Origin: Parcubacteria group bacterium GW2011_GWA2_40_23
GTDB taxonomy: Bacteria; Patescibacteriota; Patescibacteriia; UBA11705; JABHMO01
Length of the DNA: 64,000 nt
NCBI GenBank assembly: GCA_000996245.1
Contig: LBYP01000001.1
Coordinates: 17,197 to 81,196 of the forward strand
Direction: 5' to 3'
A program made the translations under genes and the position numbers. Shown piece after piece: positions 1 to 62,426 of the stretch; the stretch's first letter is position 1, and each line of letters begins with the position of its first letter. Below the pieces are notes generated by a model that saw nothing but the letters and a program-made list of their open reading frames with translations, was not told the origin of the DNA and searched no databases.

Positions 1-543
1 CCCCAAAAGGAAGCCAAAAAAAGCATATGAAATTAAACGTCCGATATTAAACGTGAGGTATGGCGCTAAGCCTTTTTGCGTTTTGGCGGCATTCCATTGT
101 TTTGTCATGGACAAGATTAACCCGCCGACTAATGCGGCACAACTAGAGAGGCCAGCGATAATGCCAAAGATAAAAAATAAAGGGAGGGAAGAATCTTCAT
201 TGACATTAACGATACTCGTCAGGCCAAGTTTGTTTAAGCCTAAAAATAATATGATGATACCGAGAGCAACACCAATGACTCCAAAAATATTTTTTGTTTC
301 CATCCCTTTTTGAACAAAAGGTTTTTCAGAGAACTGATAGCCGTCGCCGTTAAATTTATGGTTAAGTTGCTCGGCTGATGGGAATTCTCCGTTGTAATCG
401 ATCACGACAGTTTCGGTTTTAAGCGAAGCTTCAACTTTCTGAATGTTTTTGTTCTCCAAGAGCTCTCGTTCAATTAATATTTCGCACGATGGACAGTGCA
501 AACCTTTAACAAAGTAAGTTTTAGTTTTTAAATTTTCTGACAT
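1..543 (-). CDS. Heavy-metal-associated (HMA) domain fused to a multi-pass membrane protein. Partial: the C-terminus runs off the window start.
   Basis: Reverse-strand ORF starts with ATG at 543 (MSENLKTKTYFVKGLHCPSCEILIE...). GLHCPSC matches the CopZ-type MxCxxC metal-binding motif. Hydrophobic helices follow (GVIGVALGIIILFLG, LFFIFGIIAGLSSCAALVGG). It sits directly downstream of the csoR-like gene on the same strand. Confidence 0.6.
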   Translation of the reverse strand, partial: MSENLKTKTYFVKGLHCPSCEILIERELLENKNIQKVEASLKTETVVIDYNGEFPSAEQLNHKFNGDGYQFSEKPFVQKGMETKNIFGVIGVALGIIILFLGLNKLGLTSIVNVNEDSSLPLFFIFGIIAGLSSCAALVGGLILSMTKQWNAAKTQKGLAPYLTFNIGRLISYAFFGFLLG

Positions 544-550
544 ATTTTTT

Positions 551-823
551 TTATTTGTTAAATAATTTAGTGACTGTTAAAATTTCTTGAGTCATGTCTT
601 GCTTTTGCCTTTCATTTTTGGTGCTCATAGCATTTTTAAAACAGGTTTGCAGGTGGTTCTCCATAAGTAATTGATGGGCTGATTTTAAAAGTCCAATAGC
701 GGCTAAATTTTGCTGCATGACATTGATGCAATATTCATCACCTTCGATCATTTTGATTATCTTGGCTGTTAGACTGTTGGCTTTTTTGAAACTGATGAGA
801 GCCTTAGCTTTTTGCGTAGTCAT
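551..823 (-). CDS. csoR: CsoR/RcnR-family metal-sensing transcriptional repressor
   Basis: 90 aa. DEYCINVMQQNLAAIGLLKSAHQLLMENHLQTCF aligns with the CsoR signature (x-Y-C ... H-x-x-x-C). Gene order csoR then HMA protein resembles csoR-copZ. Confidence 0.75.
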   Translation of the reverse strand: MTTQKAKALISFKKANSLTAKIIKMIEGDEYCINVMQQNLAAIGLLKSAHQLLMENHLQTCFKNAMSTKNERQKQDMTQEILTVTKLFNK

Positions 824-846
824 AATATAAGTTATTATTTATTTTT

Positions 847-867
847 ACCTATACCCAGGGTATAGGT
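847..867. promoter_or_regulatory. Perfect inverted repeat ACCTATACCC-a-GGGTATAGGT, a CsoR-type operator candidate. It overlaps a predicted minus-strand promoter: -35 TTGACA at 892-897, -10 TACACT about 16 nt downstream.
   Basis: Seen directly. Arms of 10 bp, perfect, centred on 857. The TACCC...GGGTA core is characteristic of CsoR operators. It lies 24-44 bp upstream of the csoR start at 823. Confidence 0.6.
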
Positions 868-921
868 ATAGTGTAGCATGTTTAAAAGTATTGTCAAACC
901 AATAGTATTTTGTTCCTCGGC

Positions 922-1002
922 TAATCATGTTAATTATAGTAATAGCGTTTTGTTTCTAAAATAATCATGGTAATCATACAAATCATAGTTAATCATAGTA
1001 AG
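922..1002. repeat. AATCAT-rich degenerate tandem repeat (family member 1)
   Basis: ctaatcatgttaattatagtaat ... ataatcatggtaatcatacaaatcatagttaatcatagtaag. It shares the AATCATAGTAA(G/T) core with the repeats at 6056-6262 and 16716-16890. Confidence 0.6.
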
Positions 1003-1063
1003 CGAAGCGCACTGATGCTTAAAAACAAAAAAGAGCCATCGTCAGCTCTTTTAAAAGCGTTGT

Positions 1064-2320
1064 TTACTCGTGTCCCAAAGCATCAATCGGGTTTTTATGG
1101 GCCGCTTGTTGCGCAGGATAAAGACCAAAAACTAGCCCCACAAAAACTGACATAAAGACTGCGGCCAAGATGCCTTTCCACGAAACGGAAAAATCCCAAT
1201 TGTAGCCAAGTAATTGCGCTATCACTGAAACTAAATACGAAAGTAAAACACCTAGTACAATGCCGACTAGACCGCCGATTGAGGTTACGATAACTGATTC
1301 AGCGAGGAATTGCCACAAAATGTTTTTATTTTTTGCGCCAAGAGATTTACGTAAACCAATCTCGGGCGTGCGTTCAGTTACAGATACATACATAATATTC
1401 ATGATACCGACTCCGCCGACTATGAGGGAGATGGAACCAAGGGCTAAAAGCAAAATTTGGATGCCATAGATAATTGTTCCGAGCATGTCCATGGCTTGTT
1501 CCATAGTAGTGATAGCAAAATCATCTTTGTCTGGGTCGGTTATTTTATGACGTTCACGCAAAGTTAAGGTGATGTCTTCGGCCGTACTTGAAGAAAGGCT
1601 GGTGTCATAGACTTGAGCCAAGATAAAGCTGACGTAATCAATGCCGAGAAGTCTTTTTTGGATGGTTTGTACTGGGATAAAAGCCATGCCATCCATATCT
1701 AGGGCAAAGCTAGCGCCTTTTTCTTTTAAAATACCAATTACCTGAAATTTTTCTGAACCAATTTTTATGGATTCACCAACTGCAGGGGAGTCACCAAAAA
1801 GATTGTTTTTAAGTTTTGAGCCTAAAACAACCACTTTGCTTAAAGTGCGATCTTCTTCGTTAGTAAAAAACCGTCCAAATTCTACTTCGCTGGTATCGAT
1901 ATCAATAAAACCAGCACCGCAGCCAAAAAGATTCGCTTTTTTAAATTCATTTTCATAACTCAAAATTTCTTGGCCCATGACAGCGGCATAATAGTTTTTG
2001 ACGTTGGGTAATTTGGCAATAGCTTCAGCATCAGTTAATTTTAAAGTTGTAATTACGGAGCCCCCCACCATGCTAAAAGAATTTTCGCTGGAAGTGTGTG
2101 ATGTTTGGGGAGTTTTTACTTCCACTTGAATATAATCTGTTCCAAAAGCCTGTACTTCACCAACAATAAATTGTTTAATGGCTTGTCCAATCGATAAAAC
2201 AGAAATAACTGCGGTAATACCAATGGCTATGCCTAAAATTGTTAATAAAGTGCGTCCCTTGTTTTTGTTTAGGGCGTTTTGTGCAATTTTAACTGAATTG
2301 ATGAGTAATTCTTTATTCAT
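1064..2320 (-). CDS. ABC transporter permease, FtsX/MacB family
   Basis: 418 aa. N-terminal TM helix, large extracytoplasmic domain, then three C-terminal TM helices with the conserved FtsX region (GIMNIMYVSVTERTPEIGLRKSLGA). Confidence 0.8.
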   Translation of the reverse strand: MNKELLINSVKIAQNALNKNKGRTLLTILGIAIGITAVISVLSIGQAIKQFIVGEVQAFGTDYIQVEVKTPQTSHTSSENSFSMVGGSVITTLKLTDAEAIAKLPNVKNYYAAVMGQEILSYENEFKKANLFGCGAGFIDIDTSEVEFGRFFTNEEDRTLSKVVVLGSKLKNNLFGDSPAVGESIKIGSEKFQVIGILKEKGASFALDMDGMAFIPVQTIQKRLLGIDYVSFILAQVYDTSLSSSTAEDITLTLRERHKITDPDKDDFAITTMEQAMDMLGTIIYGIQILLLALGSISLIVGGVGIMNIMYVSVTERTPEIGLRKSLGAKNKNILWQFLAESVIVTSIGGLVGIVLGVLLSYLVSVIAQLLGYNWDFSVSWKGILAAVFMSVFVGLVFGLYPAQQAAHKNPIDALGHE

Positions 2321-3548
2321 AATGAAGAGCTGAAATAGGATCTAATTTGGCGGCTTTTCTGGCTGGATATAAGCCAAAAATTAAACCAACAAGGGAAGAC
2401 ATAAAACAGGCGAGGATGATTGAACTTAACGTAATAACAAAGGTCCAATCATAGCCGAGCTTATTAACGACGATTGAGATGAGATAGGAAAGGAGAACGC
2501 CAATAACAATGCCAATGATTGCTCCGAGAGTAGTAATAACTAAAGTTTCCAATAAAAATTGATAAATAATTTGTTTAGCTTTAGCGCCGACGGCCTTGCG
2601 CAAACCAATTTCTTTAATTCTTTGAGTAACCGCTGCCAACATGATGTTCATAATTCCAATACCACCAACAATTAAAGATATTGAAACAATGGCCAGAAGA
2701 AAAAACTGGAGAGAGTTTGTGATGGTGCCTAACATCACTTGAGCATCATTGGTGTTGCGAACAGAAAAATCATCCTTGCCTGGGTCTTTAATATTGTGTC
2801 TTGTTCTTAATATGTTTTCAACTTCAGAGACAACATAGTCAGTATTATCTTCGCTATCAACTTTGATGCGCATAAATCCAATGTGCTTGATGCCCAAGAT
2901 TCTTGTTTGTGCCGTTGTCACTGGAACAAAAACCATGTTATCAACATTTTGGAAACCAGAAGTGCCTTGTGGAGCCATAATGCCAACGATTGTAAAGCTA
3001 TTTTGTTTGATGTTAATTTTTTGACCGAGCGGATCAGCGCCTTTAAATAAATCATCTTTTATTTGCGAGCCAATAACGGCCACGGTGGCGTTAGTTTTTT
3101 TATCTTCTTCTGTAAAAAAATCACCCGATTCTAATTTGGAATCAGCTATGAGAGGGTAGTCAGACGAAACTCCATAAATTGGTGTAACTGTTTTTTGATC
3201 TTCCCAAGTTGCGGTCTCAGTTGCACTAACATAAGAGCAAGCTGCCACGACGCTTGGTAGTTCTTTTTTAATCGCTTCAGTATCAGAATCTTTTAATGAT
3301 GTAATAACAACGCCAAAAACAGCGGCTGGAGGACCGTTTTCATCTGATTTTCCAGGAAGAACACCGATGACGTTTGAGCCGATGCCACGGATTTGGTTGG
3401 TAATTAAACTTTCAGCCCCAGCCACAACAGAGGTAATGGTAATAACCGAAGAAATGCCGATGATAATTCCCAGCATTGTCAAAAACGAACGCATTTTATA
3501 GCTGCGTAAGTTGGTAAATGATTGTTTGACTGTGGCGCGTATGAGCAT
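2313..3548 (-). CDS. ABC transporter permease, FtsX/MacB family (second copy)
   Basis: 411 aa with the same architecture (GIMNIMLAAVTQRIKEIGLRKAVGA). Overlaps the downstream permease by 8 nt. Confidence 0.8.
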   Translation of the reverse strand: MLIRATVKQSFTNLRSYKMRSFLTMLGIIIGISSVITITSVVAGAESLITNQIRGIGSNVIGVLPGKSDENGPPAAVFGVVITSLKDSDTEAIKKELPSVVAACSYVSATETATWEDQKTVTPIYGVSSDYPLIADSKLESGDFFTEEDKKTNATVAVIGSQIKDDLFKGADPLGQKINIKQNSFTIVGIMAPQGTSGFQNVDNMVFVPVTTAQTRILGIKHIGFMRIKVDSEDNTDYVVSEVENILRTRHNIKDPGKDDFSVRNTNDAQVMLGTITNSLQFFLLAIVSISLIVGGIGIMNIMLAAVTQRIKEIGLRKAVGAKAKQIIYQFLLETLVITTLGAIIGIVIGVLLSYLISIVVNKLGYDWTFVITLSSIILACFMSSLVGLIFGLYPARKAAKLDPISALHYE

Positions 3549-3549
3549 G

Positions 3550-4272
3550 TTATTTTTTTAATTCATCAGTAGCCGAGGCGATCTTGCGGCCTTGAACAAA
3601 TTGGTCAGAAACAATTTCGCCATCTTTAATTTTGATGATTCTTTTGGCATGGTCAGCTGTATCGCTTTCGTGTGTTACGATGATAATTGTTTTACCCTTG
3701 TCGTTTAATTCTTGGAGTAGATGCATAATTTGTCCACCGGTTTTGGAATCGAGGTTGCCGGTTGGTTCGTCAGCTAAAATAATATCTGGATCATTAACTA
3801 AAGCTCGGGCGATTGCAACTCTTTGTTTTTCGCCACCAGAAAGTTGGTTTGATAAATAGTCTTGGCGATGTTCCAGACCAACCTCTTTAATAGCGATTGA
3901 AGCAAGGGAATTATGCTTGGAAACTGCTTGTTTACTATAAATTAAGGGAAGTTTTACGTTTTCAAAGACAGAGGTACGTGGTAGTAAATTAAATGCTTGG
4001 AAAACAAAACCGATTTCTTTGTTTCTAATGTCAGCCATTTCATCATCAGTTAATTTTTCGATGTTTTGGCCTTTGAAGATATATTGACCACCTGTTGGTT
4101 TCGTTAAAAAGCCAATAATATGCATCAGCGTCGATTTGCCCGAACCTGATGGTCCCATGATAGCCACAAATTCACCCTTCTCAATAGTAAAGCTAGCTTC
4201 TTTTAGGGCTAGAGTTTTGACGTCTTCGTTTTCGTAAACTTTTTGTAGTTTTTTAGCTTCAATTAAAGTCAT
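3550..4272 (-). CDS. ABC transporter ATP-binding protein (MacB/LolD-like)
   Basis: Walker [10 protein letters not shown], signature [15 protein letters not shown], Walker [13 protein letters not shown]. The ORF track extends to 4299. The start at 4272 ([13 protein letters not shown]) avoids a 26-nt overlap with the upstream gene and fits the typical N-terminus. Confidence 0.85.
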
Positions 4273-4273
4273 A

Positions 4274-6031
4274 TTATTTTTGAGTAGTAGTGGAGACAAT
4301 TATGACATCGCCCACATTAATGCCTTCAAGAATTTCTATGTTTCCATTGGTGCCGCGAATTCCAGTTGTGACTTTTACTTCTTGAACTTCGGTGGTATTT
4401 TTTAGAATTCGAACAGTTTTATCTCCGTTGGTTCTGATAATTGCTCGTTGCGGTATAGTCACAATATCATTTTTTTCAGCTGTTAAAATATCAACATTAG
4501 CAGTTAAACCGGATTTAATGTTTTCATTCTCCTCTGTAAATTCAAGCGTGACTTTGTAAGTCGGAACGCCATCAATAATAGTTTCAGCTGGATCAACCAA
4601 AATTATTTTGGCTTCAAATTTGGTGTCGCTGCCAAAAGCATCAAGAGTTACAGCGGCAGTGTCGCCGATTTTTACGTTGGCAATATCAACTTCAGCTACA
4701 TTAGCTTCTATTTGGAAGTTATTATCAGAAATTACTTTAATAACAGTTGTGTTTGATTGGATAATTTCACCAACCTTAGCGTCTTGCATGACGACAATGC
4801 CATCAATTGGGGAAACAATATTGTTTTTAGCGATTTGAGCCGAGATGTTTCCGATATTAGCTTGGGCATATTTAATTTGAGCTTGTTGAGATCTGACATT
4901 GGCTTCAGCTAATTTAACCTGAGATTCTTGAGCATTGATTTGTTCTTGAGTGGAACCTGCGCGTTTGAGTAAGAGTGTGTTTTGTGATGATTGTAAAGTG
5001 TTTTGAGAAGTATTGACCGCGGCTAAGGCTGTAGCAATGGTCGAAGTGTTGGTTGCTTTCTGAGCTTTAATTGCATTTTCATTAGTGGCAATAGAAGTTA
5101 TTTGTGCATCTACATAGCTTTTTTGAGTATTGAGGCTGCTGATGTCGGTTGTGGAAAGTGGAGACAATGAAATCGCATTAAAGGTTTGACGTACTTGTTG
5201 CATGGCAGCTTTCGTTGCCGTTAATGCGACATTAATATTTTCTTCAGTCGGGGTTTGAAAGGCGGTGTTGACTAGTCCCTTGGCTCCGCCATTTAAACTG
5301 TTTAATCCTGAGTTGCTCATTCGTCCGGCATTGTAACCACCGAGTAATGAGACTACGGCAAAACTTTTCGCATCGGCGAGGCGGGTTCCTTCTGGAGTGG
5401 AATCTCCAAAATAAGTATTTTGTATGTCTGTAATTGTAAATAGAGCATAAAGACCAACATTTACGGCATCACTTAATCCGGCGTTGGTAACTTCAAGTTG
5501 TTTTTGTAGATCAGTTATGGCTTTTGTTTTAGAATTTTCATAAGCGATTTGGGCATCAGCTAAACTATTTTGGGCGCCGGTGACAGTTTCTTCGGCAATG
5601 ACCATTTCCTCGGGACGGGTGCCACTTTTAAGTTCATTTAATTTTGACTGTTGAGTCGCTAGCGCTGATTCGTAATTCATTAGTAGGGCACGACTACTCT
5701 CGAGAGAAGCAGCCGCTTGACTGCTTTGTGCAAATAAATCATTGCTAGTTAAACTAGCTAGTAATTGGCCAGATTTTACAACATCACCAACTTTAACATT
5801 GATTTTTGCGACTTTTCCGGGTTTTTCAAAGGCTAACTCAACATTATTGGCAGCTTTGACTGTACCAGTAACACTGACTTCTTGTGTTAAGTTCGATTTC
5901 TCTGCTACAACCGTGGTGTAAATGGGGTCTGTGTTCTTTCTTGATAAAAGGATTCCCCCAATCATAATAATTAAAATGATCCCGATAATGATGTAGAATT
6001 TTTTCAGCTTAAAAATTTTGGGTAGATTCAT
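4274..6031 (-). CDS. HlyD-family periplasmic adaptor / membrane-fusion protein (long form)
   Basis: 585 aa. N-terminal TM anchor (IIIGIILIIMIGGILL), a long Ala/Gln/Ser/Thr-rich coiled-coil segment, and C-terminal beta-barrel/lipoyl-like motifs (VKAANNVELAF...GQLLASL). Same operon as the ABC ATPase and two FtsX permeases. Confidence 0.7.
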   Translation of the reverse strand: MNLPKIFKLKKFYIIIGIILIIMIGGILLSRKNTDPIYTTVVAEKSNLTQEVSVTGTVKAANNVELAFEKPGKVAKINVKVGDVVKSGQLLASLTSNDLFAQSSQAAASLESSRALLMNYESALATQQSKLNELKSGTRPEEMVIAEETVTGAQNSLADAQIAYENSKTKAITDLQKQLEVTNAGLSDAVNVGLYALFTITDIQNTYFGDSTPEGTRLADAKSFAVVSLLGGYNAGRMSNSGLNSLNGGAKGLVNTAFQTPTEENINVALTATKAAMQQVRQTFNAISLSPLSTTDISSLNTQKSYVDAQITSIATNENAIKAQKATNTSTIATALAAVNTSQNTLQSSQNTLLLKRAGSTQEQINAQESQVKLAEANVRSQQAQIKYAQANIGNISAQIAKNNIVSPIDGIVVMQDAKVGEIIQSNTTVIKVISDNNFQIEANVAEVDIANVKIGDTAAVTLDAFGSDTKFEAKIILVDPAETIIDGVPTYKVTLEFTEENENIKSGLTANVDILTAEKNDIVTIPQRAIIRTNGDKTVRILKNTTEVQEVKVTTGIRGTNGNIEILEGINVGDVIIVSTTTQK

Positions 6032-6055
6032 ATAGTTTATTATTTTTGGTAAATG

Positions 6056-6262
6056 TTAGTTGCCATTAATCATATTAATCATGATAATCATTGTAATCAT
6101 AGTAATGTTCGTTGCCACTAATCATATTAATCATAAGAATCAGGGTAATCATAGTAATGTTTGTTGCCGCTGCTAATCATATTAATCATGATAATCATTG
6201 TAATCATAGTAATGTTTGTTGCCACTAATCATATTAATCATGATAATCATTGTAATCATAGT
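6056..6262. repeat. Tandem repeat, about 52-55 bp unit x 4 (GTTGCCACTAATCATATTAATCATGATAATCATTGTAATCATAGTAATGTTT)
   Basis: Seen directly: four consecutive near-identical copies between marR (upstream) and the adaptor gene. Contains the palindromic ATCATGAT core. The last copy overlaps the marR stop. Confidence 0.75.
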
Positions 6263-6687
6263 CTTTCGTAATGCTTAAAAAGTTTTTGATATATATTAAT
6301 TAAATCTTTTTTGTCTTTTTCGTTTAGAGGAGAGAGAAAGTTAATCATTTTACTTTTTATGTTTTTCTGTGTTGTTTCCAGGAATTTTTTGCCCGTTTTT
6401 GTTAATTCTAGATAAACGTTACGACGATCTTGTTTCTCGTGCTTACGGGACAGTAGCTTTTTGTCTTCGAGTTTATTAATGAAACAGGTAATAGAGGGTG
6501 GCGTGATACCAAAAAGACGAGCCAGGTCTTTCATGCGGGTCTTTTCTTGACTGTTGATGAAGGAGAGGGCTTCAAATTGAATCATTTTTTCTGCTGAGAT
6601 TTGAGTGGTTTTTTGCAGTTGTGAGAAAATGAGGCGTTTTAGGTTAAAAATGGTTTCGATTAGTTGTTCTGTGTTTTGTGTAGACAT
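6256..6687 (-). CDS. MarR-family transcriptional regulator
   Basis: 143 aa with a winged-helix region (MKDLARLFGITPPSITCFINKLEDKKLLSRKHEKQDRRNVYLELTKTGKKF). First gene of the minus-strand efflux operon. Confidence 0.8.
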   Translation of the reverse strand: MSTQNTEQLIETIFNLKRLIFSQLQKTTQISAEKMIQFEALSFINSQEKTRMKDLARLFGITPPSITCFINKLEDKKLLSRKHEKQDRRNVYLELTKTGKKFLETTQKNIKSKMINFLSPLNEKDKKDLINIYQKLFKHYERL

Positions 6688-6889
6688 ATTTAGTTTATCT
6701 AACTATTATGTTTTCTAAGTATAACAGGGCGGATAAAAAAAACAATGTTTGGCGTTGCGTGAAGATGCTTGGGTTTGTTTTGAAGTGTTCAATTGAAAAA
6801 GACAATTTGGGTGGTTTTTTGATTGATTTTTTATCACAGATGATGTAAAATTGCATTAGTTTGTAAACAATTTAACTTTATTACTAAAT

Positions 6890-8341
6890 ATGTTCGAACA
6901 ATCCTTTAAAAACATTGATAATATTCTCCATACTGATTCTGGCTGTGGAACTGAGTTGGATTATGTTGAGCAAACGTCCTGGATTCTCTTTTTGAAGTAT
7001 CTTGATGACTTAGAAGAGACCAAGAAAACTGAAGCCGCACTTGCCGGTAAAAAGTATGAGTATATTTTGTCCTCTGAGTATCGTTGGAACTCTTGGGCTT
7101 GCCCGAAAAACGGAGGTGGCAAATTGGATCATAATAAATCATTAGACGGTGACGATTTGAAGGATTTTGTGAATAATAAACTTTTCCCATATTTGAAACG
7201 ATTCAAAGCTGAAGAACCAAATACCATCGAATATAAAATTGGAGAAATTTTTTCTGAATTAAAAAATAAAATCTCTAGCGGCTATAAGTTGCGAGAGATT
7301 TTAAATATTGTTGATGACATGCATTTTCGACTTTACGAAGAAAAACATGAGCTGTCGCATCTTTATGAAGCTAAGATCAAGAACATGGGTAACGCGGGTC
7401 GGAATGGTGGTGAATACTATACGCCCCGCCCTTTAATTAAAACAATTGTAAAAGTTGTTGCACCAAAAATTGGTGACACTATTTATGACGGTGCTTGTGG
7501 GAGTGCAGGGTTTTTGGTGGAAGCATATAAATATTTAACAGAAAATCAGGCCAAGCTTTCTTCTAAACAAATGGAAATATTACAGACAAAAACTTTTTAT
7601 GGAAAAGAAATAAAATCCCTCGCTTACATCATTGGCATTATGAATATGATTTTGCACGGCATTGAAGCGCCGAATATCCGCCACATGAACACATTGGCAG
7701 AAAACATTAATGATATTCAAGAAAAAGATCGGTTTGATATTATTTTGGCCAATCCGCCTTTTGGTGCTGGTATTGGACGAGAGATTCAACAGAACTTTCC
7801 AATTAAGACAGGTGAAACTGCTTTTCTTTTCTTGCAACATTTTATAAAAATTTTGAAAGCTGGTGGGCGAGCCGGTATTGTTATCAAAAATACTTTTCTT
7901 TCTAATACAGATAATGCGAGCGTTTCCCTAAGAAAATTACTTTTGGAAAACTGCAATCTGCACACGGTTTTGGATTTGCCTGGCGGTGCTTTTCAAGGTG
8001 CTGGGGTGAAAACTGTAGTTTTATTCTTTGAAAAGGGCGCGCCAACGAAAAAGGTTTGGTTTTATCAGCTTAATCTTGCTCGCAATCTTGGCAAAGGGAA
8101 TCCTTTGAATGAAAATGATTTGGTGGAATTTGTGGAACTGCAAAAAACTAAAGCAGATAGTGAAAATTCGTGGTCGATTGATGTGACAAAAGTTGATCAA
8201 AATACTTTTGATTTGTCGGTGAAGAATCCAACCAAAAGCAATGAGGTGGCTTTGAGAGAGCCGAAGGAGATTTTGGAGGATATGAAAAGTATTGATGATA
8301 ATGTAAAAAATATTTTGGAACAAATTGGGGAAATAATATAA
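6890..8341 (+). CDS. hsdM: Type I restriction-modification N6-adenine DNA methyltransferase subunit M
   Basis: 483 aa. HsdM N-domain, AdoMet motif DGACGSAGFL, catalytic NPPFG (ILANPPFGAG). Confidence 0.85.
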   Translation: MFEQSFKNIDNILHTDSGCGTELDYVEQTSWILFLKYLDDLEETKKTEAALAGKKYEYILSSEYRWNSWACPKNGGGKLDHNKSLDGDDLKDFVNNKLFPYLKRFKAEEPNTIEYKIGEIFSELKNKISSGYKLREILNIVDDMHFRLYEEKHELSHLYEAKIKNMGNAGRNGGEYYTPRPLIKTIVKVVAPKIGDTIYDGACGSAGFLVEAYKYLTENQAKLSSKQMEILQTKTFYGKEIKSLAYIIGIMNMILHGIEAPNIRHMNTLAENINDIQEKDRFDIILANPPFGAGIGREIQQNFPIKTGETAFLFLQHFIKILKAGGRAGIVIKNTFLSNTDNASVSLRKLLLENCNLHTVLDLPGGAFQGAGVKTVVLFFEKGAPTKKVWFYQLNLARNLGKGNPLNENDLVEFVELQKTKADSENSWSIDVTKVDQNTFDLSVKNPTKSNEVALREPKEILEDMKSIDDNVKNILEQIGEII

Positions 8342-8359
8342 TAAATAATTTTATAAGGT

Positions 8360-9184
8360 ATGATAGATGAAACTATAAAGATTTCTCTTAATAAGGGTTA
8401 TGAAAATATAAAAAAAGTTGACGAAAATGGTGTTGAATATTGGCAGGCGAGGGAGCTGATGCCATTGTTGGGTTATGAGGTATGGCAAAAGGCCGAAGAT
8501 GTGATTGGTAGGGCTGCAAGGGCCTGTGTTAATAGCGGTCAGGCTGTGGATAACCATTTTAACCTTTCCAGTAAAATGGTTGAGATAGGCTCAAATACAG
8601 TCCGCGAAGTGCGTGACTGGAAATTGGATCGTTTTGCATGTTATTTAGTTGCACAAAATGGCGACTCGAATAAGCAGGAGATTGCTTTGGCACAGACCTA
8701 CTTTGCCATTCAAACCAGAAGACAAGAGATGTTCGAGCAGCTTACAGAAGATGATAAACGTTTATTTATAAGGGGTGAAGTATCAGATGAGAATAAGAAA
8801 CTGTTTAGCACAGCAAAAAGTGCGGGTGTTACTAAGTTTGGTTCTTTTAATGATGCTGGTTATAGAGGGCTTTATGGAATGTCACTCGTCGAAGTAGAAG
8901 AAAGAAAGAATGTCAGAAAGGGTGAACTGCTTGATAGAGCAGGAACGACGGAGTTGGCGGCTAATTTGTTTCGGATTACTCAAACAAAAGAAAAGATAAA
9001 AAAGGATAATATCCGTGGTGATTATGATGCGTCGCAGACTCATTTTATGGTCGGTGGCAAAGTTAGGCAAACCATAAAAGATATTGGAGGGACTACGCCA
9101 GAAAATTTGCCAGCGGAAAGACATATCAAAGAATTGAAGAGCAGAAAGAAGAAACTCTTAAAAAGGAATAACAGTGAGAATTAA
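8360..9184 (+). CDS. dinD: DinD-like protein (DNA-damage-inducible protein D family)
   Basis: 274 aa. Colinear with E. coli DinD as recalled from memory: YWQARELMPLLGY, DRFACYLVAQNGD, QTYFAIQTRRQE, GTTELAANLF, HFMVGGKVRQTIKDIGGT. Same length class. Confidence 0.75.
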   Translation: MIDETIKISLNKGYENIKKVDENGVEYWQARELMPLLGYEVWQKAEDVIGRAARACVNSGQAVDNHFNLSSKMVEIGSNTVREVRDWKLDRFACYLVAQNGDSNKQEIALAQTYFAIQTRRQEMFEQLTEDDKRLFIRGEVSDENKKLFSTAKSAGVTKFGSFNDAGYRGLYGMSLVEVEERKNVRKGELLDRAGTTELAANLFRITQTKEKIKKDNIRGDYDASQTHFMVGGKVRQTIKDIGGTTPENLPAERHIKELKSRKKKLLKRNNSEN

Positions 9185-9190
9185 TTTTAT

Positions 9191-9823
9191 ATGAATGAAA
9201 AAATTTTACAAAAATATATTCAACTAATTAACGATGTCGATTCTTCTATCCGAGTCGCGTGCGATGGTTGGCCTGATACAACAGTTGTAAGTAGAGTTGT
9301 AACGGAGGCGATGAATTTAATAAAAAAAACCTGTGGCGAAGCGAGCGATCATTATATCCGTCTAAAAGAAATTACAAAAGGGGATAATTATCACCCCGAT
9401 AATGCAACTCAGTATAAAGGTGTCATAGAAGCTGCCTATAATGATTATAGGGATGGTTTCGCTAATCTTGATTTTTTTGTAAGAGCAGAAATTTTTGAGG
9501 ATTTTTTATCTATGGCTGAATATCTTCTTTCAGAAGGATATTATGTCCCAGCCGCATCTTTGGTTGGTGGTGTACTTGAAGATTTTTTGAGAAAATTGTG
9601 TGATAAAAACGTTGTTTCTTATCAGACGAAAACAAAGATTAATTCTCTGAATGTTGATTTGGCAAAAGCTGGTGTTTATACTGCTTTGGTCTCAAAAGAG
9701 ATTATTGCAAAGGCTGATATTAGGAATAATGCTGATCATGGTAAACCAAATGCATTTAACAAACAGGATGTTGAAGATATGGTAAAATGGGTTCGTAGGT
9801 TTATTGTCGATTTCTCACAATAA
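9191..9823 (+). CDS. Hypothetical protein embedded in the hsd operon
   Basis: 210 aa, no family recognised by eye. Tightly packed between the dinD-like gene and hsdS (gaps of 6 and 12 nt). Confidence 0.5.
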   Translation: MNEKILQKYIQLINDVDSSIRVACDGWPDTTVVSRVVTEAMNLIKKTCGEASDHYIRLKEITKGDNYHPDNATQYKGVIEAAYNDYRDGFANLDFFVRAEIFEDFLSMAEYLLSEGYYVPAASLVGGVLEDFLRKLCDKNVVSYQTKTKINSLNVDLAKAGVYTALVSKEIIAKADIRNNADHGKPNAFNKQDVEDMVKWVRRFIVDFSQ

Positions 9824-9835
9824 AATTTAAAAGAT

Positions 9836-10399
9836 ATGGACTGGCAAACAAAAAAACTTCGTGATGTTTGTGATGTAATTGCTGGCCAATCGCCAGAAGG
9901 TAAATTTTATAATAAGTCTGGAAATGGTGTACCCTTTTATCAGGGCAAAAAAGAATTTGGCGAAAAAATAGTTGGAAAACCAACAACTTGGACAACTAAA
10001 GTTACAAAGGAAGCATTGAGTGGCGATATTCTAATGTCGGTGAGAGCACCGGTTGGACCAACTAATTTTGCTACAGAAAAAATCTGTATCGGTCGTGGTC
10101 TTGCCGCAATTAGGGTTGGTAAAGATATCGATAAGTTTTTTCTATTTAATTTTTTGCAGTTATATGAAAGTAAAATAGTTGGTAATAAAGGTGCTGTGTT
10201 TGATTCAATTAGCAAAACACAGATAGAAAATATTGAGATATTATTGCCACCTCTACCCGAACAGAAATCCATCGTCGCCAAACTCGACGCTCTTTCCACT
10301 GAAACTAAAAAACTGGAAGCAATTTATAAACAAAAACTGGCGGATTTGGAAGAATTGAAAAAGTCAGTGTTGAAGAAGGCGTTTAGTGGGGTGTTATAA
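9836..10399 (+). CDS. hsdS: Type I R-M specificity subunit S, half-size (single target-recognition domain)
   Basis: 187 aa. TRD followed by the conserved C-terminal coiled-coil repeat (LPPLPEQKSIVAKLDALSTETKKLEAIYKQKLADLEELKKSVLKKAF). Confidence 0.7.
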   Translation: MDWQTKKLRDVCDVIAGQSPEGKFYNKSGNGVPFYQGKKEFGEKIVGKPTTWTTKVTKEALSGDILMSVRAPVGPTNFATEKICIGRGLAAIRVGKDIDKFFLFNFLQLYESKIVGNKGAVFDSISKTQIENIEILLPPLPEQKSIVAKLDALSTETKKLEAIYKQKLADLEELKKSVLKKAFSGVL

Positions 10400-10533
10400 T
10401 GCTGGTTCTTGATTTTCGAAAGAATGCTTTAAAGTTATAATTGTAAATCAGATCTTGTAGTTTACTGTTAATTATGTTAAAATTAGCAGTAAGTTAACAG
10501 AAGGGATAAAAATAATAAATTTAGCCAAATAAT

Positions 10534-11856
10534 ATGATTGAAAAACCTCCCAAATGGGAAGAACTATTATCAGGGGAGCTTATTAGGAAAGTTCATGATT
10601 CTAAGGAAACTCAAGAAATTTTGAGTAAGGCACAAAAGGAATATGTTTATTGGGATAAATTTAAGTATTATTTATTTCCTAAAAATGTAACACCCAAAGA
10701 GGCCTGGGCATTCTTAAAAATTTCAAGATCCTCAAATGAAAAAACTCCCATTAAGTCTATTACAGGGAGCACTTTTACTTATAATCTTCCAAAAAGTTTA
10801 TATCAAAAATTAAATTTTATTGACACTCACGGAGCGGGTTTGCTTAAGAGTTTTAAAGACAGACCTTCAAGTACACAGACAGTAAAATATATAATTAGCA
10901 GTTTGGCTGAAGAAGCTATCGCTTCTAGTCAAATTGAGGGCGCTAATACTACACATAAGGTGGCGAAAGAAATGATTTTATCTCAAAGAAAACCACGTAA
11001 CAGAAGTGAACAAATGATCGTAAATAACTATTTGGCTATGCAAAGGGTCTCCGAATGGAAAGACATGGATTTAACAGAACAAATGTTGCTTGATCTGCAA
11101 AAGACCATCACAGACCAAACAATTGATGAGCCTACTAGTGTTGGTAGGTTTAGGAATGATGAGGATCAAATAGTTGTAAGCGATCCAATAACAGGCGAGA
11201 TAGCGCATATTCCGTTTAAACGAGAAAAGATGTTGTCTGAATTAAAGAGGTTGATTGATTATGCTAATAAGCCGGAGGACGATGATGACTTTACTCATCC
11301 TGTTGTAAAAGCGACTATTTTGCATTTTTGGTTTGCCTATTTACACCCTTTTGTAGACGGTAACGGGAGATCCTCAAGAGCTCTTTTTTATTGGTATTTA
11401 TTAAAAAATAATTATTGGCTTATAGAGTATATTTCTGTTTCTAGAACAATTAAACAAAGTAGAAAAGCATATGACAATGCGTTCTTGTATAGCGAAAATG
11501 ATGATAATGACTTGACCTATTTTTTGCTTTATAATGCCGAGATATTCAAAAAATCAATTCTTCAATTTTTGGAATATTTTGCGGAAAAAATGAAAGAGGT
11601 TGATGAATCGAAGAAGACCACTTCGTTGTTGGGTATATTTAATTCCAGACAAGTTATGTTGCTTAAATATTTTCTTTCTCATATTGATGAATACACTGAC
11701 GTTATAACACATCAAAATAAGCACGGAATATCACGTCCTTCCGCTTATAATGATCTTAGCTTTTTGGTGGGAAAAGGATATCTTGCGAAGACAAGAAAAG
11801 GAAAGAGGTTAGTGTATATGCCAAATGCAACAAAAATTAAAGAAATATTTAATTAG
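10534..11856 (+). CDS. fic: Fic/DOC-family protein (AMPylation/filamentation induced by cAMP)
   Basis: 440 aa. Canonical Fic motif HPFVDGNGRSSR (HxFx(D/E)GNGRxxR) and a C-terminal winged-helix-like region. Confidence 0.8.
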   Translation: MIEKPPKWEELLSGELIRKVHDSKETQEILSKAQKEYVYWDKFKYYLFPKNVTPKEAWAFLKISRSSNEKTPIKSITGSTFTYNLPKSLYQKLNFIDTHGAGLLKSFKDRPSSTQTVKYIISSLAEEAIASSQIEGANTTHKVAKEMILSQRKPRNRSEQMIVNNYLAMQRVSEWKDMDLTEQMLLDLQKTITDQTIDEPTSVGRFRNDEDQIVVSDPITGEIAHIPFKREKMLSELKRLIDYANKPEDDDDFTHPVVKATILHFWFAYLHPFVDGNGRSSRALFYWYLLKNNYWLIEYISVSRTIKQSRKAYDNAFLYSENDDNDLTYFLLYNAEIFKKSILQFLEYFAEKMKEVDESKKTTSLLGIFNSRQVMLLKYFLSHIDEYTDVITHQNKHGISRPSAYNDLSFLVGKGYLAKTRKGKRLVYMPNATKIKEIFN

Positions 11857-11858
11857 TT

Positions 11859-14162
11859 ATGAATGAATCAGAAACTAGAGCTGAATATATTGACCCCAAA
11901 CTCAAAGCAAGTGGTTGGGGTGAAGTCGAAGGGTCAAAAGTTCTAAGAGAATTTAGAATTACCGATGGTCGTATCCAAACGGGCGGACTTCGAGGTAAAC
12001 CTGAAATTGCTGATTACATTTTAGTTTATAAAAATTGTAAGATTGGTGTAATTGAAGCCAAGGCTGAAAATTTAGAAGCAACTGAAGGTGCAGCACAAGC
12101 AAAATCTTATGCGCAAAAACTGCAAATAGATTATACCTATGCCACAAATGGCAAAGAGATTTATGAAATATCGATGGGTACGGGTAAAGAAAAAAGTATT
12201 GCTGATTTCCCGACACCTGATGAATTGTGGAATAAAACTTTTTCAAATCAAAATGAATGGAAAGAAAAATTTGCTAATCAACCAAACGAAGGCGAATATG
12301 GGAAACGTTATTATCAAGAAATTGCAATTAATAATGTGTTAAATGCTGTTGCAGAAGACAAAACAAGAATTCTTTTGACCATGGCCACTGGAACTGGGAA
12401 AACAGCGGTGGCATTCCAAATCGCCTGGAAACTTTTTCAAACTCGTTGGAGTTTAAACCCAGACGGTGGTCGACGGCCAAGAATTTTATTTTTAGCAGAT
12501 CGAAATATTTTAGCTGATCAAGCTTTTAATTCATTCTCAGCTTTCGATAAAGACGCACTTGTTCGCATAAATCCGTTAGATATTCGTAAAAAAGGCGCAG
12601 TTCCAAAAAGTGGAAGCGTCTTTTTCACTATTTTTCAAACTTTTATGAGTGGCCCTGATGGGACGCCTTATTTTGGGGATTACCCAGCAGATTTTTTTGA
12701 TTTTATAGTTATTGATGAGTGCCATAGAGGTGGAGCTAACGACGAAAGTAATTGGCGCGGAATATTAGAATATTTCTTTCCAGCCGTACAACTTGGTTTA
12801 ACAGCTACGCCAAAGCGCAAAGATAACGTCGATACATATAAATATTTTGGCGAACCTGTATATACATATTCGCTTAAGGAAGGTGTTAATGATGGTTTTT
12901 TGACTCCATTTAAGGTTAAAAGAATTCAAACTACCTTAGATGATTATGTTTATACTTCGGATGATCAAATAATTGAAGGAGAAGTTGAGGTTGGTAAAGT
13001 TTATACGGAACCAGAGTTCAATAGAACTATTGTAATTGAACAACGAGAAGCAAAACGTGTAAAAGTATTTCTTGATGACATTAATCAAAACGAGAAGTCA
13101 ATCATTTTCTGTGCAACTCAGGGACACGCTCTTTTGATTCGTGATTTAATAAATCAAATGAAAAACAGTAAAGATCCTAATTACTGTGTACGAGTAACAG
13201 CAAATGACGGCGCACGAGGAGATCAATTTTTGAGAGAATTCCAAGATAATGAAAAGACCATCCCAACGATTTTAACTACATCACAAAAACTTTCAACAGG
13301 TGTTGATGCACGCAACATTCGTAATATAGTATTAATGCGTCCAGTAAACTCGATGATTGAATTCAAACAAATTATTGGGCGAGGGACTAGACTTTTTGAT
13401 GGGAAAGAATATTTTACCATCTATGATTTCGTTGATGCATATAAGCATTTTTCTGATCCAGAATGGGATGGTGAACCTGTAGATGAGTCTACCGAGAGAG
13501 AACCGAAGATCAAAAAATTGAAAGCTGTAGTGGAAACATTACCACAGCCTGAACCAATATATGAACCAATGGAAAAGTTGAAAATAAAGTTGCGTGATGG
13601 TAAGGAGCGAGAAATTAAACATATGATTTCTACTTCATTTTGGAGTGCCGACGGGAAACCAATATCCATCCAGGAATTTATGGATAACATGTTTGGTGCT
13701 ATGCCTGAGTTCTTTAAGAGTGAAGAAGAATTACGGAAAATTTGGTCGAATCCAACTACACGTAAAGTGTTTTTAGATAAAATTGCTGAAAAAGGCTATG
13801 GCAAGGATGAATTAGAGACTTTGCAAAAAATGGTTGATGCTGAACAAAGCGATTTATTTGACGTTCTAACTTATATTTCATTTTTAACACAACCTATTTC
13901 AAGAGTGGAAAGAGTTGAACAAACAAAAGATAAAATTTTCAAAGGACTTGATGCAAAACAAAAGGAATTTTTAGATTTCGTTTTGACAAAATATGAAGAG
14001 AAAGGTGTTGAAGAATTAGATGAGGACAAGTTGCCCATACTGTTAAATTTAAAATATCATGCCATAGCTGATGCTGAACAATTGCTCGGAAGCGTCGATG
14101 ACATCCGATCAATTTTCTTCAATTTTCAGAAGAATTTATATGCTAAACTAAGTAATAAATAA
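11859..14162 (+). CDS. hsdR: Type I restriction enzyme R subunit (helicase/endonuclease)
   Basis: 767 aa. N-terminal nuclease region, Walker A TMATGTGKT, DEAD-like VIDECHRG, helicase C motifs (QIIGRGTR). Confidence 0.85.
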   Translation: MNESETRAEYIDPKLKASGWGEVEGSKVLREFRITDGRIQTGGLRGKPEIADYILVYKNCKIGVIEAKAENLEATEGAAQAKSYAQKLQIDYTYATNGKEIYEISMGTGKEKSIADFPTPDELWNKTFSNQNEWKEKFANQPNEGEYGKRYYQEIAINNVLNAVAEDKTRILLTMATGTGKTAVAFQIAWKLFQTRWSLNPDGGRRPRILFLADRNILADQAFNSFSAFDKDALVRINPLDIRKKGAVPKSGSVFFTIFQTFMSGPDGTPYFGDYPADFFDFIVIDECHRGGANDESNWRGILEYFFPAVQLGLTATPKRKDNVDTYKYFGEPVYTYSLKEGVNDGFLTPFKVKRIQTTLDDYVYTSDDQIIEGEVEVGKVYTEPEFNRTIVIEQREAKRVKVFLDDINQNEKSIIFCATQGHALLIRDLINQMKNSKDPNYCVRVTANDGARGDQFLREFQDNEKTIPTILTTSQKLSTGVDARNIRNIVLMRPVNSMIEFKQIIGRGTRLFDGKEYFTIYDFVDAYKHFSDPEWDGEPVDESTEREPKIKKLKAVVETLPQPEPIYEPMEKLKIKLRDGKEREIKHMISTSFWSADGKPISIQEFMDNMFGAMPEFFKSEEELRKIWSNPTTRKVFLDKIAEKGYGKDELETLQKMVDAEQSDLFDVLTYISFLTQPISRVERVEQTKDKIFKGLDAKQKEFLDFVLTKYEEKGVEELDEDKLPILLNLKYHAIADAEQLLGSVDDIRSIFFNFQKNLYAKLSNK

Positions 14163-14202
14163 TGTCTGATTAAATTGGTTCACTTAAAAGGAGTAAATTT
14201 TT

Positions 14203-14931
14203 ATGTCGCCTAAATACAACTTAGACAAAATTAAACATGCCACTGATGCACCTACCTTCCAAAAGGCGATTGGTTTGTATGAGGGTGGCAAAGTCATAAA
14301 CTTTCATGAGGATTTTGGTCGTTTTAGTGCGACAGTTTTAGGCACAGAACCGTATATGGTTTATGTTGATGGCAATCATTATGGTCAAGGTGCTTGTGAT
14401 TGTTATCTGGGGCAAAACGATACTCTTTGTAAACACATGGTGGCAGTAGCAATTTACGCTGTTTTGAATGGTCAGGAGTTGAGTTCTACGGATAAAAATA
14501 TAATTACAGAACTTGTTTGTAGTGCTAAGTCGGGAGCATTAAACAAAGAAGATTTAGCGGTGGTTAAAAAAAATATCACTTCTTCTATTAAGTATATTAA
14601 AGCTTATGTCGGTCCGTCGAGGACTTGGTTTGCCTATCAAAACTCCTTGGATGAGGGGTGCTCCCGTTTGTCAGAGATTGTGTGCAGTCTGCCCATTAGT
14701 CTGCAAACTGCAAAATTAATTGTTAATTTGCTTTTACGTCTTGATAAGAAGTTATGCCAGGGTGGAGTTGATGATTCCAACGGTACCGTTGGTGGATTTA
14801 TAGAAGAACTTGTTAAAGTCCTGGAAGACTTTGTAAAAGCTGATGCTTCTTGTTTAGCATCTTTTAATGAATTAAAAAACAGGGAAACATGTTTTGGCTG
14901 GGAAGAGCCTCTTCTTAAATTACTTATCTAG
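14203..14931 (+). CDS. SWIM zinc-finger domain protein
   Basis: 242 aa. CDCYLGQNDTLCKHMVAV has the CxC-x(n)-CxH SWIM pattern. SD AAAGGAG lies upstream. Confidence 0.6.
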   Translation: MSPKYNLDKIKHATDAPTFQKAIGLYEGGKVINFHEDFGRFSATVLGTEPYMVYVDGNHYGQGACDCYLGQNDTLCKHMVAVAIYAVLNGQELSSTDKNIITELVCSAKSGALNKEDLAVVKKNITSSIKYIKAYVGPSRTWFAYQNSLDEGCSRLSEIVCSLPISLQTAKLIVNLLLRLDKKLCQGGVDDSNGTVGGFIEELVKVLEDFVKADASCLASFNELKNRETCFGWEEPLLKLLI

Positions 14932-15028
14932 TTTTTGTGTTTTATGCTCCCTGTTCTATCACGAATCAGGAATTTTGTTTTCTTGTTCTCGAATGCTACG
15001 ATATCATTATAAAACCTAAAAATAAATT

Positions 15029-16675: not shown

Positions 16676-16715
16676 TCATTTAATCATGGTAATCATTTAA
16701 TCATAGAAATCATAG

Positions 16716-16890
16716 TAATGGTGCTGTGTCTGAGCTAAATCACAGTCATCATAAAAATCATAGTTAATCATAGTAATGGTGCTGTGTCGAGCTAAATCAC
16801 AGTCATCATAAAAATCATAGTTAATCATAGTAATGGTGCTGTGTCTGAGCTAAATCACAGTCATCACAAAAATCATAGTTAATCATAGTA
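16716..16890. repeat. Tandem repeat, about 58 bp unit x 3 (GTAATGGTGCTGTGTCTGAGCTAAATCACAGTCATCATAAAAATCATAGTTAATCATA)
   Basis: Seen directly: three near-identical copies, preceded by degenerate AATCAT repeats from 16672. It abuts the start of the phosphoesterase gene at 16894. Confidence 0.75.
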
Positions 16891-16893
16891 AGT

Positions 16894-38884: not shown

Positions 38885-38923
38885 AAAAAAGAAGTCCCCA
38901 CACCGATGCCGATGTGAGGACTT
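38885..38923 (-). terminator. Rho-independent terminator of the GC-rich island-1 gene
   Basis: On the minus strand: AAGTCC-(20 nt loop)-GGACTT-c-TTTTTT. A second hairpin GTCCC...GGGAC lies at 38924-38939. Confidence 0.55.
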
Positions 38924-38949
38924 GTCCCGTGAGAGGGACGGGGGACAGG

Positions 38950-40616: not shown

Positions 40617-40693
40617 TGGTGGGCCTGATGGGACTCGGACCCATGACCCCCACTTTATAAGAGTGGTGCTCTAACCAGCTGAGCTACAGGCCC
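40617..40693 (-). tRNA. tRNA-Ile (anticodon UAU)
   Basis: GGGCCTGTAGCTCAGCTGGTTAGAGCACCACTCTTATAAAGTGGGGGTCATGGGTCCGAGTCCCATCAGGCCCACCA. Ile-type body (resembles tRNA-Ile GAU) but the anticodon loop is CTTATAA. The T-loop is TCCGAGT (C at position 55). Confidence 0.7.
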
Positions 40694-50377: not shown

Positions 50378-50522
50378 TAAAGTACACGATTCTCGTGACT
50401 TTATGGCTGGTCATGGAGTTAACTTCTGGTATACTTCAGGGTGAACCATGGTTTTAAATAGATGAATTTAATAGTCCTTAAGTGTTATTTTTTTGACATG
50501 CCATGTCCCAGTTGACGAAACA

Positions 50523-50552: not shown

Positions 50553-50597
50553 GAACAGTGCAAAACCTGATTCCGCGGGAGGCGGAAGGGAGAGAAA

Positions 50598-52077: not shown

Positions 52078-52084
52078 TCCACAA

Positions 52085-62419: not shown

Positions 62420-62426
62420 TGTTGTC

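Follow-up and report, generated by a model that had tools for sequence, protein, structure and literature searches.

A copy-variable tandem repeat at a marR-exporter junction in Parcubacteria and its probable place in a dispersed iteron family associated with GxxExxY genes

What is a tandem repeat doing in the gap between the gene of a MarR-family regulator and the genes of a MacB-type ABC exporter? The question is raised by 64 kb of contig LBYP01000001.1 from Parcubacteria group bacterium GW2011_GWA2_40_23 (the window, in whose positions all coordinates are given unless a compared locus or contig, designated by an L number, is named). An earlier note on this DNA had described a four-copy repeat of about 52 bp that fills the marR-exporter spacer and whose last unit overlaps the marR stop codon, and had read it either as an operator array for the adjacent MarR protein or as a lineage-specific minisatellite able to vary in copy number. 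The repeat, here named array B, is confirmed at 6052-6262 by Tandem Repeats Finder (period 52, 4.0 copies, 88% matches, 3% indels, score 339) and by direct reading, and the coordinates of the open reading frames (ORFs) bear out its place in the spacer and over the stop. The explanation favoured here, with a confidence slightly above even, is that array B belongs to a dispersed family of 9-bp iterons with the core TAATCAT and a spacing of 8-10 bp, as an orphan that has a single arm and was amplified locally; that it belongs to this family at all is very probable. The repeat is part of a dispersed family linked to GxxExxY nuclease cassettes, which the earlier note missed.

Tandem Repeats Finder detects a 9-bp period nested within the 52-bp period of array B (consensus TAATCATAG). 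The plan of a unit is a spacer of about 16 bp (AATGTTTGTTGCCAC) followed by four TAATCATNN 9-mers, in which the heptamer is exact and two spacer bases vary (AT, GA, TG, AG). Iterons follow each other at 9, 9 and 9 bp within the units of array B, and across arrays the mode is 9 bp with a range of 8-10. The units stand head to tail beyond chance, as in a variable-number tandem repeat (VNTR), and exact TAATCAT occurs 15 times in array B and 48 times in the whole window, against 15.8 +/- 3.7 expected and 30 in the largest shuffle. The description of the units as perfectly phased and near-identical holds for the repeat as such, not for its phasing or identity (52, 52, 55 and 52 bp), and the 8-bp palindrome ATCATGAT, said to lie in each unit, is present in just three of the four. 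Since the ORF of the adaptor gene starts at 6031, array B occupies nearly all of a 224-nt spacer, to which it contributes 15 AUG triplets (ATGATT cores), and the TGA stop of marR (6256-6258, - strand) lies within its last TAATCAT. Two simple roles for such a spacer were rejected. As RNA, array B folds no better than shuffled sequence (z +1.15), being less stable than its own shuffles, and the arrays have no Rfam match at the gathering threshold or at E <= 1. As a coding repeat it would shift frame with every 52-bp period; only short ORFs (about 25 codons) run through it, and no ORF of 40 aa or more lies within it besides marR.

The same core recurs in the window in two further arrays, A and C (Table 1). 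All three lie in the + orientation at unrelated gene junctions within the first 17 kb, and since the strands of the adjoining genes differ, orientation relative to the chromosome is kept regardless of gene strand. No further array was found in the rest of the 64 kb or in the 10 kb beyond its left end. Array A sits between the exporter terminator (1029-1052) and the promoter-like site of a csoR-like gene (870-897). Array C lies between two + strand genes, a 548-aa secreted or membrane ORF, whose TAA stop is supplied by the first TAATCAT of the array, and a metallophosphoesterase gene, whose ATG comes 2 nt after the array ends. Three or more AATCAY cores at 8-10 bp spacing, the arrangement by which the proposed iteron/GxxExxY family is recognised, are present in the window arrays, which end in AGTAAG or AGTAATG. 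The unit of array C forms a hairpin (z -3.6), in contrast to the unstructured array B. The end motif of array A, AGTAAGCGAAGCGCAC, was also seen at non-homologous sites (window 997-1012, L153 ~1115-1135 and L154); it contains GCGAAGC, a sequence that forms a very stable DNA mini-hairpin. The 548-aa neighbour of array C was considered as a DNA-binding protein and rejected, as it looks secreted or membrane-bound and has no Pfam hit.

Outside the window, a metagenome scan with one 21-mer common to arrays A and C returned three informative loci; this 21-mer is lineage-specific, and the scan therefore samples close relatives only. The 78-kb contig L153, from Parcubacteria GW2011_GWC2_39_14, carries at least four arrays in 5.4 kb with the 58-bp unit of array C, some of them preceded by an inverted arm, GTGATT-AT-ATGATT-NCC-ATGATT. 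In blastn comparisons L153 aligns with array C at 88% over 210 bp (E 2e-67), with array B at 74% over 210 bp (E 1e-19) and with array A at 80-88% over about 80 bp (E 1e-13), so that the window arrays resemble arrays of the same lineage that flank a GxxExxY gene. L153 and the window very probably derive from the same organism, because the nucleotide distance of L153 to L154/L158 equals that of the window to L124/L127, and because the three samples that contain the exact L153 GxxExxY protein (P0121) are also those with the exact window MarR.

The family extends further. L151, a contig resembling those of the candidate phyla radiation (CPR), has four palindromic elements of the form TTGAACTATGATT...AATCATAGTTCAA, some starting with TGTCTGAACTATGATT, and this terminal motif is shared by some of the matches listed from the genome collection. 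These have the form (TAATCATNN)n-AATCAYAGTTCAGACA, in many cases together with an arm TGTCTGAAC-(rTGATTnn)n in inverted orientation. Among the matches listed, such loci come from Ignavibacteria, Bacteroidota, Fibrobacterota, Chloroherpeton, Desulfobacteraceae, Synergistia and Planctomycetes. Many of the listed matches to three TAATCAT copies in other genomes were rejected as acidic DDY-coding repeats or simple 9-mers, and DDY coding does not explain the window arrays. Core and end motifs (AATCATAGTAAGCGAAGCGCAC; AGTAATGGTGCTG...) are shared between sites that are not homologous to each other. Family members in L098, L107, L151 and L160 are intergenic, multi-copy elements of 100-170 bp with inverted ends TGTCTGAAC...GTTCAGACA; terminal inverted repeats (TIRs) are present in these four and in L164, and in the inverted arms of L098 the cores match and pair while the spacers do not. 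A complete member consists of two inverted iteron arms ending in TGTCTGAAC and GTTCAGACA, which either abut, in the manner of a miniature inverted-repeat transposable element (MITE), or enclose a GxxExxY gene of about 130 aa. Large expansions were observed as well: L107, a metagenome-assembled genome of Desulfobacteraceae, has 15 iteron arms ending in GTTCAGACA at 3700-5300 and on the reverse strand, in tandem palindromic elements of about 150 bp, and L112 (Ignavibacteria) has a run of at least 25 AATCATGTT units. Both expansions adjoin GxxExxY genes. A literature search on the motifs gave incidental matches only, one of which prompted the Fur-box comparison discussed below, and this putative family of repeats and mobile cassettes could not be found described in the literature searched.

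The gene of about 130 aa that abuts the elements in L098, L151 and L153 belongs to the GxxExxY family (TIGR04256; PF13366, PDDEXK_3). In eight loci that had been preselected by the DNA motif, tblastn places it 6-126 bp from an array. For a test independent of the motif, five homologues were chosen by protein alone (from Parcubacteria GWC2_38_7, Microcystaceae, Edaphocola and two metagenome contigs), to which two viral-contig loci, the only GxxExxY loci in the viral contigs searched, were added. Iterons or TIRs adjoin the gene in 7/7 of these distinct loci (L158, L160, L162/163, L164, L166, L172 and L173). Up to 200 bp from the gene, the motif is 5.8-fold denser than in the remainder of these loci. 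Over all 15 loci, iteron-bearing inverted ends, TGTCTGAAC-(ATGATTnn)n ... (nnAATCAT)n-GTTCAGACA, flank the GxxExxY genes. The association between GxxExxY genes and iterons is considered likely. Its form differs among more distant homologues, which have variant iterons (GGATT/AATCC; Persicobacter, L170) or a plain inverted repeat (Treponema, L171).

That the gene and its repeats form a cassette is seen most directly where boundaries are available. In L164 and L172 the cassettes are cleanly bounded by TGTC(T)TGAAC-TATGATT ... AATCAAGGTTCAGACA and lie between hsd genes, in the order hsdS-GGTCTGAACTATGATT..ATGATT..gene..AATCAT..AATCAAAGTTCAGACA-ATG hsdR in L164 and hsdM-cassette-hsdS in L172. Such a clean position between hsd genes of type I restriction-modification operons was often seen among the GxxExxY loci. 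An observation on these cassettes is that the upstream hsd gene takes its final codons and its stop from the left motif TGTCTGrAC, with the C-terminal ends ..SGL, ..GGLNYDFKND and ..NVLNYDL (L098 ~3505-3530, L164 ~1960-2000 and L172 ~1150-1200), and that the ATG of the following hsd gene directly adjoins the right end. In the lineage of the window, L154 represents the empty site, in which only a few bases separate the stop of a YgjP-like gene from the ATG of the following one; L153 carries about 760 bp (gene plus array) at this site, and L158 has the gene one gene further along. The cassette is therefore an insertion polymorphism in the window lineage.

As for the protein, D71, E81 and K83, a D...ExK signature, are invariant in 30 homologues, and the AlphaFold model (mean predicted local distance difference test, pLDDT, 77) is closest to the folds of Cas4, lambda exonuclease and resolvase, with template-modelling (TM) scores of about 0.5. 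From signature and model the GxxExxY protein looks like an active nuclease; PADLOC gave no match to it. By analogy it may tentatively be considered the protein that binds or mobilises the iterons, a proposal made with considerably less confidence than the association itself. The family is abundant, with at least 8000 significant homologues, and the literature searched, in which only five papers mention it, does not describe flanking repeats. Homologues P0121-P0240 are 75-85% identical across Parcubacteria, Microcystaceae (cyanobacteria) and Bacteroidota, and most of the homologues listed lie on very short contigs (0.5-5 kb), as expected if surrounding repeats break assemblies.

The history of the junction itself can be read from orthologous loci. 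The adaptor protein assigns the window organism to the groundwater Parcubacteria (CPR), being 83% identical to its counterpart in a genome of the GW2011_GWC2_38 type. In L127/L128, at this level of identity, site B has a 46-nt spacer with two ATGATT that is clearly homologous to the single-unit form of the window, site C has six iterons, and site A has about 25 with higher-order repeats of their own. In L124, with an adaptor identity of 93%, marR overlaps the adaptor start by 4 nt (ATGA) and there is no array at site B, one TAATCAT at site C and three to four ATGATT at site A. In L130 (74%) the spacers are 1 nt at site B and 4 nt at site C, both without an array, and site A has a short spacer with one AATCAT and again no array. 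The adaptor ATG thus overlaps or abuts the marR stop in L124 and L130. Across these loci the arrays have thus appeared, disappeared and changed in length among members of one genus-level clade, in which marR and the exporter persist. Two observations accompany this comparison. In L127, four phased 9-bp repeats (ATGATTATT / GTGATTATC, 6037-6069) lie in the N-terminal transmembrane helix of the adaptor and encode MIIVIIMIIVI, so that the periodic motif also occurs inside a coding region of the 83% relative. In the window, a type I restriction-modification island (6727-15027) with hsdM, a PDC-S13/Bro-N-like gene, a 210-aa ORF, a half-size hsdS, a SoFic-like Fic gene, hsdR and a PDC-S62-like ORF lies between marR and the 548-aa ORF, which are divergent neighbours in L124, L127 and L130. 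A tie between the arrays and this island was rejected, since arrays exist in relatives that lack it (it is absent from L124, L127 and L130).

These comparisons bear directly on the regulatory explanations. MarR dimers bind AT-rich pseudo-palindromes, an operator being expected to span about 16-20 bp, and array B both adjoins marR and carries the 8-bp ATCATGAT in three units, as an operator array for the neighbouring regulator might. Its repeats are, however, direct with a 9-bp period, and it lies 3' of marR, between the stop at 6256 and the adaptor start at 6031, rather than at a promoter; arrays A, C and those of L153 and L151 have no MarR gene beside them. Relatives keep marR and exporter while arrays come and go, with L124 and L130 retaining both genes and no array, which disfavours an operator role. 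As far as sequence comparison can tell, the operator reading proposed earlier would be largely refuted already, and it is now regarded as highly improbable. A conventional operator upstream of marR was also considered and rejected, with weak inverted repeats only and no strong palindrome in that position. A somewhat different regulator is suggested by the core, since TAATCAT forms the centre of the classical Fur box (GATAATGATAATCATTATC): the units would be sites for a Fur/Zur/PerR-like repressor of the exporter. The best matches in the window, 15/19 to the 19-mer and 12/14 to the 7-1-7 box, come from three of the four array B units, and array A adjoins a csoR-like copper operon. Still, the match of the B units hinges on one spacer pair (GA, TG), arrays A and C stay below 14/19 throughout, and the layout is a direct 9-bp period instead of an inverted 6-6-6 or 7-1-7 arrangement. 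As tblastn with E. coli Fur finds no homologue within the 64-kb window and iterons flank GxxExxY genes in many phyla without metal-related context, such a box array is considered very unlikely. The remaining proposal of this kind is that the units are tandem internal promoters, sense for the exporter or antisense for marR, whose number sets the expression level as at a contingency locus. Each B unit has TTGCCA-17-GATAAT or AAGAAT on the + strand (10/12 or 9/12), antisense into marR, matches of 9/12 occur on the - strand (e.g. GTGGCA-17-TACAAT), and positions 500-7000 contain 34 promoter-like sites against 19.3 +/- 4.6 in shuffles; copy number varies, and array B separates genes that are translationally coupled in relatives. 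Yet these are consensus matches in AT-rich repeats only, array C lacks a comparable + strand match, and array A lies upstream of an ordinary promoter, so that expression tuning is rated as quite unlikely. Replication functions (DnaA boxes, DnaA-trios, an origin) were rejected because the core matches TTATCCACA at 7/9 at best, the sign of the GC skew is constant across the window, and three arrays lie within 16 kb. Sites of the integration host factor (IHF), sigma-54, CtrA or PhoB type would likewise be a poor fit to the arrays.

The other earlier reading, a lineage-specific minisatellite of variable copy number, is supported. It was evaluated on contigs from short-read assemblies that encode exactly the proteins of the window, with flanks 100% identical. 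Four units of array B are present in the window and in L002/L132, against a single one in L001/L131 and L004; a clean deletion of 159 bp (52+55+52) separates the two alleles. For array C, the window, L139, L140, L145 and L146 have 3 units, L141 has 2, and L138, L142 and L144 have 1; array A, which lacks a higher-order duplication, is identical in six assemblies. Unit number in arrays B and C thus varies between strains with conserved flanks, as in a VNTR. Could the four units, or the 1-unit alleles, be products of short-read assembly? Contig L003 ends inside the array B repeat, and collapse is a concern because all 1-unit forms stem from one MEGAHIT k141 assembly series. Against this, the 4-unit form recurs without a single difference in a second, independent assembly (L002/L132), array C is complete in five assemblies that stem from at least three pipelines, a 2-unit allele of intermediate length exists, and the k141 assembly that carries 1-unit alleles (ERZ27254739) preserves every base of two other 3-unit 58-bp arrays (L167 = L153). 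The units of array B can, moreover, be ordered by reads because they differ from each other. An assembly artefact is therefore exceedingly improbable, and the polymorphism of arrays B and C is probably real. A polymorphic tandem repeat may still be a neutral slippage minisatellite, in which a chance AT-rich 9-mer at the junctions grows and shrinks by replication slippage, no protein is bound, and the GxxExxY association is a coincidence of insertion-tolerant junctions. This would agree with the tandem structure and its copy-number alleles, with the lack of RNA structure in array B and of an Rfam match, with the invariance of array A, with the lack of an obvious function for any array, and with the simple 9-bp TAATCATNN tandems found in many unrelated genomes among the matches listed. 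What neutral decay would not lead one to expect is an exact heptamer beside differing 2-nt spacers, a core and end motifs common to non-homologous sites, or iterons or related TIRs at 7/7 GxxExxY loci selected by protein. Neutral slippage accounts for the variation, but it is consequently seen as unlikely.

The favoured explanation, an amplified orphan of the iteron family, can be set out as a sequence of steps. An array copy at the marR-adaptor junction would predate the split of the window lineage from the 83% relative and would have put a 65-nt spacer in place of the overlap of stop and start codons (ATGA). Later, a block of 52 bp would have been duplicated in tandem, probably by unequal recombination or slipped-strand mispairing between iterons, so that this spacer grew to 224 nt, with block number still varying between strains. 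The iterons are read as protein sites because their cores are conserved and their spacers free, because the spacers of the inverted arms do not pair, and because array B is unstructured as RNA; they may serve as multi-site binding platforms for a protein of the element, for which the GxxExxY nuclease is the candidate. By analogy, this nuclease may spread or maintain the repeats in the manner of repetitive extragenic palindromes (REPs) and their REP-associated tyrosine transposases (RAYTs). For the exporter operon the array would be selfish or neutral, its likely effect being that translation of marR and adaptor is uncoupled by an unstructured, AUG-rich spacer. No evidence was found that array B is adaptive.

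Several findings weigh against this explanation. The terminus TGTCTGAAC/GTTCAGACA is absent from arrays A and B, and the closest terminus-like match in the window arrays, TGTCTGAGC (8/9), lies inside the array C unit. The window arrays have one orientation and one arm, without the inverted arms, and the 64 kb contains no GxxExxY gene or remnant; the window arrays would therefore be orphans. Array B is only 74% similar to the L153 arrays, and low complexity can inflate such matches. No target-site duplication is seen between the empty site of L154 and the filled site of L153, and the GxxExxY protein lacks both a distinct DNA-binding domain and, by sequence, any relative of solved structure. Orthologous sites carry arrays even between species with 83% adaptor identity, a sign of long persistence rather than of frequent movement. 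The taxonomic range of the family is sampled among the matches listed and gives no estimate of frequency, and to these points the common assembly series of the 1-unit forms has to be added.

In its widest form the proposal is that GxxExxY proteins (TIGR04256 / PDDEXK_3) are the nucleases of unrecognised compact mobile cassettes with inverted 9-bp iteron arrays, which seed REP-like orphans and MITE-like palindromes across phyla including CPR. This generalisation is doubtful and is offered as a possibility. It supplies an abundant protein family with a testable hypothesis for its role (a nuclease-driven mobile cassette with REP-like progeny) and offers a possible reason for the tendency of GxxExxY genes to lie on short, broken contigs. 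If it were true, the repeat between marR and the adaptor gene would be an orphan of this kind that is still undergoing change, and small CPR genomes would have a documented repeat family. For the exporter operon, the comparison removes a tempting model of MarR regulation and reveals that a variable AUG-rich spacer has come between two genes whose translation is coupled in relatives.

Table 1. Repeat arrays and neighbouring genes in the window.
Feature	Position	Strand	Description
Array A	922-1012	+	About 6 TAATCAT-type iterons (4 at 9-10 bp spacing, 963-996); end motif AGTAAGCGAAGCGCAC (997-1012)
Array B, unit 1	6052-6103	+	52 bp; AATGTTAGTTGCCAT, then 4 x TAATCATNN
Array B, unit 2	6104-6155	+	52 bp; most diverged, with five substitutions; third iteron GAATCAG; without the ATCATGAT palindrome
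Array B, unit 3	6156-6210	+	55 bp; 3-bp insertion GCT
Array B, unit 4	6211-6262	+	52 bp; last TAATCAT (6253-6259) contains the marR stop
Array C	16673-16891	+	5 iterons, then 3.4 copies of a 58-bp higher-order unit (2 iterons plus hairpin)
CsoR-like gene	551-823	-	
MacB/FtsX permease gene	1064-2320	-	
MacB/FtsX permease gene	2313-3548	-	
ABC ATPase gene	3550-4299	-	
HlyD/MFP adaptor gene of the MacB-type ABC exporter	4274-6031	-	Downstream neighbour of array B
marR-family gene	6256-6687	-	143 aa; upstream neighbour of array B; outside the repeat family

Some features of the window lie apart from the question of the arrays. Near array A, a CsoR-type operator palindrome, TACCTATACCCAGGGTATAGGTA, is located at 846-868, directly downstream of the promoter-like TTGACA-16-TACACT (with TG; 870-897, - strand); both sites precede the csoR-like copper operon, and in L124 and L127 the palindrome is conserved too. 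GC-rich islands with sharp boundaries occur in three places, at 38900-40000, 50400-52200 and 62300-64000, with 52-57% GC and up to about 70% per 100 bp in a genome of 36%, and a GC-rich stretch is also present in L153 (7800-8700). The islands have long ORFs on both strands, are dissimilar to each other, and gave no Pfam hit, no Rfam hit at the gathering threshold and no rRNA primer sites; a weak group I intron match lies in one of them (63679-63876, E 0.009). ARAGORN detects a tRNA-Ile with anticodon TAT at 40617-40693, an anticodon that is unusual for bacteria.

How, then, does the iteron family compare with known repeat systems? In behaviour it resembles REP/RAYT and MITE systems, yet it fails their defining tests. 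Like REPs and bacterial interspersed mosaic elements (BIMEs), the repeats are short, copy-variable, clustered and intergenic, often at gene ends; a small nuclease-type gene is flanked by repeats, and most copies are orphans far from it. Three arrays lie in the window and at least four in 5.4 kb of L153. REPs, however, are hairpin-forming palindromes whose single strands are handled by a Y1 (HUH) transposase, whereas the arms here consist of 9-bp direct iterons with unpaired spacers, array B has no hairpin-forming palindromic unit, and the flanked gene encodes a GxxExxY protein of the PD-(D/E)XK type with a presumed activity, not a Y1/HUH (IS200/IS605-like) transposase. MITEs, such as the Correia elements of Neisseria, share the inverted ends, intergenic insertion and multiple copies of the family members; they differ in that the window copies are one-armed, no target-site duplication is seen, no DDE transposase is associated, and the subterminal arrays contain 3-10 or more iterons and can become far longer (25 copies in L112). 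With bacterial VNTRs and minisatellites, arrays B and C have in common head-to-tail units of 52-58 bp whose number differs between close strains, but an ordinary VNTR is locus-specific, and here the unit is made of conserved 9-bp iterons common to non-homologous loci and other phyla. Integron attC cassettes also combine a single small ORF with an imperfect palindrome inserted in series (as in L151), and the ends contain AAC...GTT; this relation was rejected, as the ends TCTGAAC / GTTCAGA match RYYYAAC/GTTRRRY at 5/7 and the arms are iterons instead of R and L boxes. No integrase turned up, with no search aimed at one. The Fur box shares TAATCAT at its centre, a match limited to array B, and differs from the direct 9-bp repeats. 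Plasmid iterons, the WATCACW heptads of the omega protein (inc18) and ParR/ParG centromeres presumably offer a further parallel, with a short core (AATCAY being close to WATCACW) and variable spacers. In contrast to such arrays, the period is 9 bp instead of 7 or 11, the sites are chromosomal junctions, and no ribbon-helix-helix (RHH), Rep or Par gene is apparent nearby. Closely spaced direct and inverted repeats with a short conserved core are what co-operative protein binding would lead one to expect.

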